64,000 nucleotides of DNA, taken from Gemmatimonadales bacterium. Its GTDB lineage: Bacteria; Gemmatimonadota; Gemmatimonadetes; Gemmatimonadales; GWC2-71-9. How positions within the stretch are numbered: position 1 is the first letter of the stretch; every line of letters starts with the position of its first letter. The DNA lies in NCBI GenBank assembly GCA_037189525.1, contig JBBCJC010000002.1, positions 1,120,001 to 1,184,000 of the forward strand, read 5' to 3'. The position numbers were made by a program, and so were the translations under genes. The notes under the pieces were generated by a model. It saw only the letters and a program-made list of their open reading frames with translations, was not told the DNA's origin and did no database searches. Shown here piece by piece: positions 24,482 to 27,456 of this stretch.

Positions 24482-24751
24482 TCACCCTCCGCAGCTGACC
24501 GAGCGGGGCACGACTCGGCCGCAGGCGATGATGTCATCCATTCCGCGCGCCATCGGTCCGCATGCGGCCGTCTGCGCCGTTTCGGCGGCGGCTTCCTTGG
24601 TCGGCCCCGACGCCTTGGCGCAACGGCTCCCGCCCCGGAAGTCGACGCAGACTTCGCAGGTGATCTGCTGGGGCTTGAAGCTCGTATACGCGAGGATGCC
24701 GATGAAGACCGCGACGATGATGGCAAAGACGGCCGAACGACTGAGGCGCAT
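24482..24751 (-). CDS. Small membrane-anchored protein with six Cys
   Basis: GGAG SD; one N-terminal TM helix; CEVC plus four further Cys; ends 4 nt before yggT. Confidence 0.75.
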   Translation of the reverse strand: MRLSRSAVFAIIVAVFIGILAYTSFKPQQITCEVCVDFRGGSRCAKASGPTKEAAAETAQTAACGPMARGMDDIIACGRVVPRSVSCGG

Positions 24752-24816
24752 GGAACCCAACTCCGCTCCGGGTGATGTTGCTTGGCAGTAGCCGGCGAAA
24801 TTAAGCTTGTCGGACG

Positions 24817-25182
24817 ATGCAGGGACTCGTCAGCCGACTGATTTTCGTAATGGCCCTCCTGGGGATGCTGTCGTCAACCGCCCCCCGGCCGGAGCCGCAC
24901 TGCGCCCCCCAGCCAGCGGCCGGGACCTCGCAGCACGATCATCACGGCCACTCGGCCAAAGATACCGACGGCGCCCGGGAATGTCCTCATTGCCCGCCGG
25001 TCGAATGCGGGCGGCATCTGCAGTGCAGCGTGTCCGCGGATCCTGCTTCGGGCGAGTTGGCGCCGCTCCCCGTGCCGGACGGAAACCTCGAAGCGCAGCG
25101 TCTGGCCGCCCAGGTGGCCCGCTCCCTTTCTCTGAAACCACCCACACCTCCACCCAACGCCTCCCGTCACACGAACGTCTAG
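24817..25182 (+). CDS. Putative metal-sensing leader ORF (DUF2946/CutF-like architecture)
   Basis: Signal-like N-terminus, HDHHGH, CPHC plus further Cys, C-terminal KPPTPPP; 32 nt upstream of an outer-membrane gene. Confidence 0.65.
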   Translation: MQGLVSRLIFVMALLGMLSSTAPRPEPHCAPQPAAGTSQHDHHGHSAKDTDGARECPHCPPVECGRHLQCSVSADPASGELAPLPVPDGNLEAQRLAAQVARSLSLKPPTPPPNASRHTNV

Positions 25183-25214
25183 TCGTTTCATCGTTCCATT
25201 GACGAGGAGTAGTC

Positions 25215-26009
25215 ATGATTGGGCAGGAATGGACTCGGCCGCTGGCCGTGGTCTTGGCGTTGGCAATCGGGGTCGCACCCCTTGCTGCGCAAATCGATTA
25301 TCGTAACCTGGACGTCGGTCGCCCGGTTCGGGTCACCGATGCCTATCCCGTCGAGCGTTTTGCGTTCGAGCTCTCGCTTCCCTATGCCGCCGGCCGTGGT
25401 GATGGTGCGGTGCGGCACACCGTGTCGCCCCATCTCGAGTATGGCATCCATCGGAACCTGATGGTCGGGGTCGGTGTCGAGGTCGACCTCCATCGCACCG
25501 GAGGCAGCGCGGGCCTGGCAGCCGCGGAGATCGGCGCCTTGTGGAACGTTCGGAGGGAAACTCCGTCGTTGCCGGCCATTGCCTTCAGTCTCGAGGCTGC
25601 GCAGCCCTTGCGAGACGGGCGATTTGGTCGCGATGTCGAAGTCACTCTGACCGGGCTGGCGACCCGGTCGATCGGCCGGTCACGCCTCCACCTGAACGGG
25701 GTGGTGGGCCTGCTCGTTCCGGAGGCTTCGCACCTGGGCACACCGTGGTGGGCCGGGGTGGCCTGGGATCGGACCCTGTTTCGCAGCAGCACGCTGGTCG
25801 TCGCGGAGGTCGTGGTCAATCGTGATGCCGGCGCGCTTCCGGTTACCTGGAGCGCCGGGGCCGGGGTTCGCCGCCAGTTGACCCCGACGGTTGTGGGCGC
25901 CATCGGTGTGGCCCAGGCGCTCGACGATTTTGATGCGGGAACCTCGCTCACGGTCTCCCTGAGTCATGCCTTTGGCGTTCGCAGCCTGATGCGACGAGGT
26001 GTCCGATGA
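25215..26009 (+). CDS. Putative outer-membrane beta-barrel channel (COG4313/MetA-like)
   Basis: Signal peptide LAA-Q; RPVRVTDAYPV N-terminal segment; amphipathic beta-strands; GAGGAG SD. Confidence 0.65.
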   Translation: MIGQEWTRPLAVVLALAIGVAPLAAQIDYRNLDVGRPVRVTDAYPVERFAFELSLPYAAGRGDGAVRHTVSPHLEYGIHRNLMVGVGVEVDLHRTGGSAGLAAAEIGALWNVRRETPSLPAIAFSLEAAQPLRDGRFGRDVEVTLTGLATRSIGRSRLHLNGVVGLLVPEASHLGTPWWAGVAWDRTLFRSSTLVVAEVVVNRDAGALPVTWSAGAGVRRQLTPTVVGAIGVAQALDDFDAGTSLTVSLSHAFGVRSLMRRGVR

Positions 26010-27016
26010 AAACCATCATGACGATGCTGCTCATGGCCTTGGCGCCGGGTCTACTGACGGCACAGGGCGGGCGTAACGAAGAGTTCTACTATCCGGGCGC
26101 CTTCAACTGGCAGTTCCTGCGCAACTATCCCGAGGCGGCCCGCCTCTTCAACGCGTTCGACTACGGGCACGCGATTCTGTATGAGCGGTTGCTGGCCGAC
26201 CCGGCGGGGTCCGTCGAGCAACTCGAAGACCGGGAGTTCCGCTATCTGGTCGGCGATCTGTTGCGGCGTCCGCCCCGCTTCTCGGTTGCGGAGGAAGCGA
26301 TCATGCCCCGCTACAGCCGGATGGCATGGCGTGCCAAGCTGATGTTCGAACGGGCCCACGTCCTGCACCGGCAGATCTACGATGTCTACGCCGACGAGCG
26401 CTTGCCGAGCGATCAGCAGACGACTCTGGTCGAAACACTGATCAATCGCTACCTCGCCGACCGGGACTATGCGTTTACCGATCGACCCAAGGCCATGGCG
26501 CTGATGGACGAGCAGTATTTCAGCAAGGTGTTCCGGGTCGGGTATCCCAAGTTCAACGGCTTGATCTGGGCCTATCACTGGCTCCAGGTCGGTCTCTACG
26601 AACCGTTGATCGCCGAGCAGGACGCGGCGGCCAAGCAGGCCGGAGTGAAGGAAACCGTGGCGCGGTTCTGGGCGATGGTGGATGGAGCGCCCGGTACCTT
26701 GCCCAGCGTCATGCCGATGGGATCAGCGGTTGCTCCGCACTTCAGCGAGCGCCACCCGCGAGCCGCGATCATCTTCGACAATCTGCACATGATGCACGAC
26801 ATCATTTCGGATGTCCTCGCGTCGCCCAAGGTTGCTGCTGCGGACAAGGCGAGGGTCATCGAGGAAGCGCTGGATGAATTCCAGAATCCGACCAGCAATG
26901 TGATCGACCTGGAGCACTGGCGGATGATGGCAGATCACATGGGTGGGGTCGACAAGATGGGAGGGGTTGCTGGGCGACCGGCTGCTGCCCCGCGACCCAG
27001 CCACCAGCATCACTGA
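26006..27016 (+). CDS. Secreted helical His/Met-rich hypothetical protein with four internal repeats
   Basis: ATGA overlap with the upstream gene; signal peptide LTA-Q; FDYGH, HVLH, YHWLQ, LHMMHD; C-terminal HQHH. Confidence 0.85.
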   Translation: MKTIMTMLLMALAPGLLTAQGGRNEEFYYPGAFNWQFLRNYPEAARLFNAFDYGHAILYERLLADPAGSVEQLEDREFRYLVGDLLRRPPRFSVAEEAIMPRYSRMAWRAKLMFERAHVLHRQIYDVYADERLPSDQQTTLVETLINRYLADRDYAFTDRPKAMALMDEQYFSKVFRVGYPKFNGLIWAYHWLQVGLYEPLIAEQDAAAKQAGVKETVARFWAMVDGAPGTLPSVMPMGSAVAPHFSERHPRAAIIFDNLHMMHDIISDVLASPKVAAADKARVIEEALDEFQNPTSNVIDLEHWRMMADHMGGVDKMGGVAGRPAAAPRPSHQHH

Positions 27017-27025
27017 TCCAGGCGC

Positions 27026-27070
27026 AAAAAACCGGCGGCTCCGGATCGTTCGGAGCCGCCGGTGTCTTTT
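27026..27070. terminator. Bidirectional intrinsic terminator
   Basis: Perfect 13-bp stem accggcggctccg/cggagccgccggt flanked by an A run and a T run, between convergent genes. Confidence 0.88.
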
Positions 27071-27081
27071 ACTGGAAGAGG

Positions 27082-27456
27082 TCAGTTGCCGGCGATGCCG
27101 GGGGTCGCCTCGGGCGCAATGCCATCGGTGATCGGAACGATGCCCGCCCGCCAGCCGCTGGCGAAGACGACCGTCAGGCGGTAACCCAGCGTGTCGACTT
27201 CGACGCTGCGGACCCCGGGCAGGGTGCGCGCATATTCGGCGGCTTTCGTCGTCTGGACCGCCCGCGCCTCGTGCGACTGACCCCCATCCCACTGGGCCAG
27301 CGCCCGGCCGATTGCCACGGCCCGCGCCTGTTCGGTGCCGTACCTGGCAAACTGCTCGGCCGGGATCAGGCCGGCCTGATCCGAGACTTTGGAGTCGAGA
27401 TCGTAGAGGCGGCAGCCTCCGGTCAGGGCCAGGATGGCCAGCAGGGTTCCACGCAT
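27082..27456 (-). CDS. Hypothetical lipoprotein
   Basis: MRGTLLAILALTGG-C lipobox-like N-terminus. Confidence 0.7.
   Translation of the reverse strand: MRGTLLAILALTGGCRLYDLDSKVSDQAGLIPAEQFARYGTEQARAVAIGRALAQWDGGQSHEARAVQTTKAAEYARTLPGVRSVEVDTLGYRLTVVFASGWRAGIVPITDGIAPEATPGIAGN

Follow-up and report, generated by a model that had tools for sequence, protein, structure and literature searches.

The element described here is a three-gene unit on the forward strand of a Gemmatimonadales genome of 4.65 Mb, within a stretch of 64,000 nucleotides (the window, C2:1120001-1184000). It comprises ORF1, a small cysteine-rich open reading frame (ORF) of the CutF-like leader class; gene 2, which encodes a predicted outer-membrane barrel; and gene 3, which encodes a predicted exported protein rich in histidine and methionine. 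The type of switch that precedes the cargo is already known, and the new part is the cargo pair itself, which is undescribed and widely kept. The initial annotation, made from the bare sequence, had proposed that a known leader logic drives a different cargo here, and this is supported: the cargo is a predicted barrel plus a protein of no known family. The chances that the whole unit is a copper-induced periplasmic capture/detoxification module are, in our opinion, about even. According to this scheme, periplasmic copper would bind the cysteines of the leader during export, and the copper-bound leader would stall the ribosome on its PPTPPP tail. The stalled ribosome would unmask the ribosome-binding site (RBS) of the channel gene, and gene 3 would be made by translational coupling through the ATGA overlap. 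The gene 3 protein would sit at the periplasmic side of the barrel and capture copper there, perhaps with oxidation of Cu(I); copper, or a copper complex, would be exchanged through the channel. Stalling, copper as the ligand and induction rather than repression are inferred by analogy with CutF; the geometry of the metal site, the contact between the two proteins and the direction of flux are the most conjectural elements.

The unit has implications beyond this locus. The gene 3 family is large, unannotated and without a solved relative, and its product, with a confident model without a fold match and six to eight invariant His residues, is an immediate candidate for a novel copper site. A fixed partnership with gene 3 would give the COG4313 channel family its first metal-linked role, and the pair bears on the role of small barrels such as PcoB in copper defence. 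In addition, the swap between leader and two-component system before the same genes is a natural test of PPP-type leaders as copper-ON switches.

The cargo pair: a predicted barrel and a predicted two-repeat helical protein

Genes 2 and 3 form an obligate and repeatedly fused pair. Two sets of loci were compared: the best 80 of 473 genome loci, fetched by gene 3, and 80 metagenome loci picked for likeness to a distant gene 3 relative. In 148 of the 160 loci, genes 2 and 3 stand side by side or are fused, the other 12 loci standing at contig ends. In the genome set, gene 2 immediately precedes gene 3 in 78 of the 80 loci (fused in 6). In the distant metagenome set, the two are neighbours in 70 of the 80 loci, 54 with gene 3 first and 16 with the barrel first, and the remaining 10 are at contig ends; the co-occurrence put forward as a check by the initial annotation is thus found in both sets. 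At 90% clustering, 3,567 gene 3 relatives (E up to 0.001) were counted among 7,997 scored candidates, and at 50% clustering 565 representatives. Within the phylum, gene 3 is present in 79 of 301 sampled genomes, including the host genome and the unpublished G156 (78 of 300 without the latter). On Methylobacterium plasmids the pair occurs in reversed order, and the gene 3 copies there have twin-arginine-like signals; database names place other relatives in Bdellovibrionales and Oligoflexia, and an Atlas lead points to Cyanobacteriota.

In some relatives of gene 3 the protein is joined to a further domain: DUF2231, SnoaL-like, cytochrome c (P0389), cupredoxin (P0335) or propeller. The DUF2231 membrane domain is repeatedly fused (L051, L066, P0244, P0383) or encoded separately after gene 3 (11 loci), and the DUF2231 protein is a candidate inner-membrane partner of gene 3. 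In several loci (L031, L059, L074, L076), a cytochrome b-like gene and a conserved exported protein of no named family are found downstream of gene 3.

The AlphaFold2 model of gene 2 is a 12-stranded barrel with a predicted local distance difference test score (pLDDT) of 90. Its top structural match is FapF (Z 23.0, root-mean-square deviation (rmsd) 2.7, 216 aligned), followed by a COG4313 channel (Z 21.3, rmsd 2.8, 213 aligned) and, at a greater distance, PcoB (Z 12.3, rmsd 4.2, 180 aligned). The outer-membrane barrel announced by the initial annotation therefore stands as a predicted 12-stranded fold of the COG4313/PF13557 type. Gene 2 resembles its best fold matches, FapF of Pseudomonas (PDB 5o65) and Pput2725 (PDB 4rl8), in the 12 strands and in a conserved N-terminal segment, which in the model likely plugs the barrel, but it shares with them only 11-14% identity and, unlike them, is always paired with gene 3. 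PF13557 is matched at E up to 0.01 by 19 of 119 alignment members, the window copy giving none; PF05275 (PcoB/CopB) is not matched by gene 2, whose sequence holds no His/Met-rich N-terminal domain. In the literature searched, no copper link for COG4313/PF13557 barrels was found.

His makes up 3.9% and Met 5.4% of the gene 3 product (surrounding genes: 2.1% and 2.0%), which is in this respect the His/Met-rich protein anticipated earlier; its exported location was judged by eye, as were the signal peptides of all three proteins. The model is all-helical (pLDDT 95.6), with a Met/His tail. Four potential ligand pairs with i/i+3 spacing (D52/H55, H118/H121, H191/Q194 and H261/H264) are each located in one of four long helices. 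The two halves of the protein align with each other (99.2% probability, E 2e-19; reversed control 0.4%), and, because of this internal repeat, D52xxH55 is equivalent to H191xxQ194 and H118xxH121 to H261xxH264. The pattern DHHHHQHH occupies the eight positions in 80 of 80 genome loci, all of which share more than 55% identity in gene 3. His is found at all eight positions in 55 of 83 aligned distant sequences (query counted), and the six His are kept in 50 of 89 full-length representatives (64 partial rows left out). The four pairs would likely close into a two-metal site in the four-helix core, which is among the most tentative claims made here. Type-3 dicopper proteins (tyrosinase, hemocyanin) have two related halves and four helices that bear six conserved His. 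Gene 3 resembles them in these traits and differs in the HxxH spacing and in a fourth pair (DxxH, HxxQ or all His). Some relatives form a His-less branch (including P0283, P0286, P0288, P0294, P0302, P0303 and P0313), many of them with Met-rich tails, and may be non-metal paralogues.

Pfam and NCBIfam searches with ORF1, gene 2 and gene 3 gave no match at E up to 1, and gene 3 does not match the multicopper oxidase domains PF07732/PF07731, its model being all-helical. Foldseek and VIA-align searches with gene 3 against solved structures returned nothing at E up to 0.001; the best listed fold match (Z 5.0, rmsd 5.2, 132 aligned) does not prove a new fold, and neither tyrosinase nor hemocyanin is among the 50 matches listed. 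PDB sequence searches with single proteins and profiles reached a best E of 0.022, for 16 distant gene 3 relatives NCBIfam gave nothing beyond a fused cupredoxin and a single weak match of no relation, the ESM Atlas matches were unnamed clusters only, and among RNA runs no holder was listed. A match of gene 3 to a characterised family, against which the initial annotation had proposed to check its proposal, was thus found in none of Pfam, NCBIfam, PDB and fold searches. Neither was a published description of the pair found in the searched literature, largely without subscription journals; the term "Gemmatimon" is absent from the main text and three supplements of the main CutF survey, whose File S1 neighbour list and figures, outside this search, may contain the pair (PMC9973294).

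With regard to the contact between the two proteins, complex prediction for gene 2 and gene 3 gave a score of 0.52 (runs 0.00/0.52/0.91), the best of three controls scoring 0.00. With a run agreement of at least 0% and a partner pLDDT of at least 86, this was graded as weak support; in calibration, scores of 0.60 or less were obtained in only 18 of 157 solved complexes and in both of the 2 mismatches (of 215) that passed. Neither a like complex nor the gene 3 fold was found among solved structures. Both termini of such barrels are normally periplasmic. Because of this, and because the fusion linkers are short (about 20 residues in P0056), gene 3 is likely to lie under the barrel.

A CutF-like leader and a predicted translation switch

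ORF1 contains 8 His and 5 Cys, and its PPTPPP motif ends 8 residues before the stop codon. This agrees with the small secreted His/Cys/polyproline ORF described at the outset, with a signal recognized by eye (Arg7, hydrophobic stretch 8-18) and a cleavage site, PEP before HC, less canonical than the AxA before HC of its relatives. CutF-like proteins were selected as shorter than 150 aa, with a SignalP Sec signal, PP within 15 residues of the C terminus and a same-strand neighbour at less than 1,000 nt (PMC9973294). ORF1 passes the length, PP and neighbour filters (121 aa, PPTPPP at 108-113, 32 nt to gene 2). By contrast, it does not match the DUF2946 (PF11162) hidden Markov model (HMM) at E up to 1, and a genome-wide PF11162 search is silent at this locus. 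ORF1 thus belongs to the known CutF-like class by rule and lies outside the Pfam model, so that of the DUF2946-type leader first proposed the CutF-like character is kept and the DUF2946 assignment is not.

Of the 80 genome loci, 39 carry a leader and 28 are leaderless (at least 500 nt upstream and none by the rule); another 11 have too little sequence, and in 2 the sequence stops short of gene 2. Thus 67 are judgeable (39 with and 28 without), and the 39 plus the window's own make 40 leaders. ORF1 is not a chance ORF, since 39 of the 67 judgeable related loci have a homologous leader in which the motifs are equally spaced, in line with the conserved CxxC/Pro-rich leader before genes 2 and 3 that the initial annotation had proposed to look for. 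The pattern CxxC-x(4-6)-C-x(4-5)-C is common to 38 of the 40 leaders, and from first Cys to last Pro there are 57-60 residues in all 38 four-Cys leaders (43 from last Cys to last Pro in the window leader). All 40 tails are of the PPP type; none contains the RAPP of the CruR subtype, and the gaps between leader and gene are of 31-87 nt. About 19 of the metagenome loci, among them loci of either gene order, likewise have a leader-like ORF in front (loose rule, by eye), and the cultured Gemmatirosa kalamazoonensis carries leader, barrel and gene 3. In L058 (1664-2189), one of the 28 leaderless loci, the leader appears to be split by a frameshift, with the tail motif intact and out of frame. ORF1 is very probably a cis-acting stalling leader. 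A role as free chaperone was considered and rejected: the fixed Cys-Pro spacing and the RBS pairing point to a role in cis.

The predicted hairpin that masks gene 2's Shine-Dalgarno (SD) sequence involves an anti-SD element, CUCCCGUCA (25161-25169), located 6-14 nt past the last Pro codon, which is predicted to pair with UGACG and GGAG (25200-25209). Among 22 de-replicated loci, pairing of the 27 nt from the last Pro codon with the own RBS has a median of -18.6 kcal/mol, versus -12.5 when swapped; the own RBS is the best partner in 8 of the 22, and 0 of 100,000 permutations were as good, a statistic that shared ancestry and base composition may inflate. When a stalled-ribosome footprint is placed over the last Pro, the computed cost of opening the RBS falls from 14.2 to 6.0 kcal/mol in the window and, as a median over the 40 leader loci, from 12.2 to 7.1 kcal/mol. 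A relief of at least 3 kcal/mol is seen in 21 of 40 leader loci versus 4 of 28 leaderless controls. The predicted stem-loop, which hides the SD within reach of a stalled ribosome and whose two sides co-vary between loci, matches the CutF mechanism.

CutF belongs to the copper-induced cutFOG operon of Rhodobacter capsulatus and ends in a PPP tail (PMC9973294; bioRxiv 10.1101/2025.02.05.636593), and in both CutF and CruR the Cys motif is separated from the Pro motif by 45 residues (PMC9973294; PMC9426467). The window leader is similar to CutF in being a small exported Cys protein with a PPP tail about 45 residues past the Cys motif, an SD-hiding stem-loop and a short gap. Unlike CutF, it has no DUF2946 HMM match, it carries CxxC-x4-C-x5-C instead of CxxxC, its anti-SD lies inside the leader's last codons, and its cargo is a barrel plus a protein of no known family instead of a multicopper oxidase. 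CruR (Bp2923) of Bordetella pertussis is characterized by RAPP, a 162-nt gap and a Rho-dependent shut-off by copper (PMC9426467); the likeness lies in a leader ORF with CxxC and fixed Pro-motif spacing ahead of an outer-membrane transporter, while the window differs in having PPTPPP, a 32-nt gap and an SD-masking hairpin. Since 5,334 CutF-like proteins are already known ahead of many neighbour classes (PMC9973294), the leader is not the novelty.

Comparison with the copLAB and PcoAB systems is also instructive. In Xanthomonas, copB reportedly follows copLA. CopL of copLAB is counted as CutF-like (PMC9973294), and the unit recalls copLAB/PcoAB in its layout, in which a leader goes with a periplasmic, here putative, copper protein and a barrel of 12 strands (for PcoB: PMC9210255, PMC12509749). 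However, the periplasmic partner here is not a multicopper oxidase, the barrel is COG4313-like and not PF05275, and neither cargo protein is homologous. Because both systems co-exist in L116 and L117, the pair is not a simple replacement of copLAB/PcoAB.

Copper neighbourhoods and competing explanations

Copper genes (P1B ATPase, CusA/B, CopC/D, multicopper oxidase, NosZ, azurin, HMA) are found in the fetched flank of 34 of 78 loci, with labels taken from cluster representatives and 188 singleton genes left out; by leader state, the counts are 12 of 39 loci with a leader, 19 of 28 without one and 3 of 11 short loci. In comparison, 7.0% of random 13-kb windows of the host genome contain copper genes under a looser rule. 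The nearby cop/cus genes proposed as a check are consequently enriched over the family and, within the fetched flank, lacking at the window itself. The ATPase cluster representative passes TIGR01511, and 14 of 19 ATPases with a readable motif carry CPH, which we take to mark the CopB type. Distant copies (131 of the neighbour genes scanned) lie beside copA-copB, DUF305, DUF326, P1B ATPases, CusCBA and cupredoxin genes, and many others without a metal gene; two loci adjoin nosZ.

The leader is exchanged for other metal regulators before the same genes. A divergent, CusRS-like pair of response regulator and kinase stands directly upstream in 16 of 28 leaderless versus 0 of 39 leader loci, their best models being the heavy-metal TIGR01387 and TIGR01386, and PF02583 (CsoR-family) repressors flank distant copies. 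Leader and two-component states switch at least 6 times on the gene 3 tree (FastTree, without support values). The substitute regulators belong to families that respond to metal excess. In L072 (3682-4361), a PIN-like toxin-antitoxin pair, recognized by eye, stands directly before the barrel in the regulator's usual place. A convergent cutA1 gene follows gene 3 directly in L013, L033, L048, L050, L069, L071 and L075; its copper link is doubtful and it was left uncounted.

By analogy, copper is the probable ligand of the leader, and it is likely, with somewhat less assurance, that the unit is induced by excess. A copper-ON polarity is favoured because of the PPP tail (here without Arg), the short gap of 32 nt and the substitute regulators. 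That capture or detoxification is the job of the cargo we hold to be about as probable as all its alternatives together. Several observations weigh against the capture scheme. The invariant residues of gene 2 are mostly Arg, Asp, Glu, Gly and Pro, with one His and no Met or Cys, a conservation that is unlike a typical Cu(I) path and by itself suggests no copper path; the closest folds of gene 2 carry polypeptides or hydrophobic compounds. Cys is absent from gene 3, and sites rich in His are used by Zn, Ni and Fe as well. In 34 of 89 full-length representatives no more than three of the six His are kept, from which it follows that His-less paralogues exist; the coupling analysis has little depth (Meff 248), and joint loss can also give rise to its His-His pairs, so these couplings were rejected as proof of contact. 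At the window and its 19 yggT-syntenic relatives there is no copper gene within the fetched flank, and the two-component representatives score below the curated cut-offs (231.5 vs 279.2; 259.3 vs 292.55). As for the RNA, the folding of the 121-nt region does not stand out from that of shuffled sequences (z -1.06), 3 of 40 leaders pair poorly with their own RBS, and the footprint relief stays under 3 kcal/mol in 19 of 40 leaders. Moreover, the hairpin does not fix polarity, because stalling switches expression on in CutF and CruR alike.

Among the alternatives, a rather unlikely one with appreciable weight is that gene 3 is a new two-copper oxidase, oxygenase or reductase, for which the barrel would admit a small organic substrate and the leader would gate on copper. 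A helical protein of pseudo-symmetric build with 3+3 or 4+4 invariant His, an identity across the genome loci that is high for a mere sink, the fusions to cytochrome c, cupredoxin and DUF2231, the twin-arginine-like signals in Methylobacterium, which suggest folded export, and a barrel of the phenol-degradation PF13557 type would all suit an enzyme, and CutF-like leaders also precede the cuproenzyme NosZ (PMC9973294). Nevertheless, catabolic or biosynthetic neighbours do not recur, while exporters and chaperones do, and the PDB sequence and fold searches with gene 3 listed no match to tyrosinase, hemocyanin or other solved enzymes. A bolder form of this idea, which we regard as possible but well short of even, is that gene 3 founds a new two-copper class with its own fold (a duplicated helical bundle with four pairs of the HxxH type), docked under a dedicated COG4313 channel and doing redox chemistry. 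This class would extend over Gemmatimonadota, Alphaproteobacteria, Bdellovibrionota and probably Cyanobacteriota, and three copper sensors of unrelated kinds would have come to control it.

Copper import under scarcity, in a CruR-like manner with a default stall released by copper and gene 3 taking the metal that arrives through the barrel, is improbable. The same hairpin logic would serve it, PcoB, a 12-stranded copper-defence barrel, is reported to permit import (PMC9210255), and the two loci by nosZ would fit; yet there is no RAPP, the gap is short, the substitute regulators are of excess-responding families, and no TonB receptor, Sco or PCuAC appears among the recurrent neighbour clusters. 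Of the uptake, storage or redox roles suggested originally, uptake is thus made less likely by the PPP-type tail and the substitute regulators; capture is favoured, with an enzyme next. Slightly less credible than import is the same switch and cargo serving another metal (Zn, Ni, Co, Ag or Fe), against which stand the four-Cys leader, whereas Ni/Co-linked clusters are His-only (PMC9973294), and the dominance of copper genes in the neighbourhoods of several phyla. Very improbable, finally, is a FapF-like exporter or anchor that displays the gene 3 product at the cell surface: FapF gives the best structural match and the barrel-first fusions resemble inverse autotransporters in order, but the COG4313 channel is nearly tied with it, the fusion linkers are short, and twin-arginine-like copies, if exported folded, could not thread a 12-stranded pore.

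Gene anatomy, borders and neighbouring genes

The coordinates of the features are collected in Table 1. The self-contained plus-strand unit with a divergent gene on its left, as first described, is confirmed by the ORF coordinates and by the ATGA in which the TGA of gene 2 overlaps the ATG of gene 3. At its right border, the terminator first called perfect is indeed a perfect 13-bp inverted repeat with a 7-nt loop, but it is bidirectional, given the T-runs on both strands, and its plus-strand T-run is interrupted. In 35 of 40 leader loci (2.5 expected), a TAnnnT box precedes the start codon of the leader by 4-10 nt, so that the leader mRNA is likely near-leaderless; a sigma-70 consensus scan at its stricter threshold gave no promoter site over the unit.

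Table 1. Features of the unit (window positions) and further leader-like ORFs of the host genome (contig positions).
Feature	Position	Strand	Basis
Predicted promoter TTGCTT, 18 nt, TAAGCT	24778..24807	+	read from sequence; ends 9 nt before ORF1 ATG
ORF1, CutF-like leader, 121 aa	24817..25182	+	signal-like N terminus, His patch, four-Cys cluster, PPTPPP tail
His patch HDHHGH, residues 40-45	24934..24951	+	sequence; His patches also in homologues
Cys cluster CPHC-x4-C-x5-C, residues 56-70, predicted metal sensor	24982..25026	+	pattern kept in homologues
PPTPPP codons, residues 108-113, predicted ribosome pause site	25138..25155	+	mechanism by analogy with CutF
Predicted mRNA hairpin masking gene 2 Shine-Dalgarno GAGGAG (25204-25209)	25161..25209	+	RNA folding
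Gene 2, predicted 12-stranded outer-membrane barrel, 264 aa	25215..26009	+	AlphaFold2 model, fold matches
Gene 3, predicted exported all-helical two-repeat protein, 336 aa	26006..27016	+	model pLDDT 95.6, internal repeat
Bidirectional intrinsic terminator-like hairpin, common to unit and convergent downstream gene	27031..27063	both	perfect 13-bp inverted repeat
Additional leader-like ORF	C5:97170-97724	-	read from genome
Additional leader-like ORF	C5:364754-365185	-	read from genome
Additional leader-like ORF	C5:598562-599029	+	read from genome
Additional leader-like ORF	C2:1098025-1098435	+	read from genome
Additional leader-like ORF	C2:1208484-1208813	+	read from genome

The surroundings are housekeeping genes: metH, prolyl oligopeptidase, yggU and yggT on the left, aldehyde dehydrogenase on the right. 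The divergent gene (24482-24751, minus strand) encodes a small membrane-anchored protein with six Cys (CxxC first) and has no credible Pfam match. As the two starts are only 65 nt apart, its promoter and that of the leader must overlap. It is kept beside yggT in 12 loci, window included, and was rejected as part of the system because it tracks yggT and not the gene 2/gene 3 pair. Opposite-strand and shifted ORFs across the unit were likewise rejected, since they merely shadow real genes and have no other support. Convergent on the terminator lies a lipoprotein-like ORF without a Pfam match (27082-27456, minus strand), kept in about 20 related loci. The five further leader-like ORFs of the host genome contain Cys/His patches and tails of HAPP, RPPR, RAPP or RSPP; one of them is located between two multicopper oxidase genes and another about 1.4 kb before a cusB-cusA-P1B cluster.

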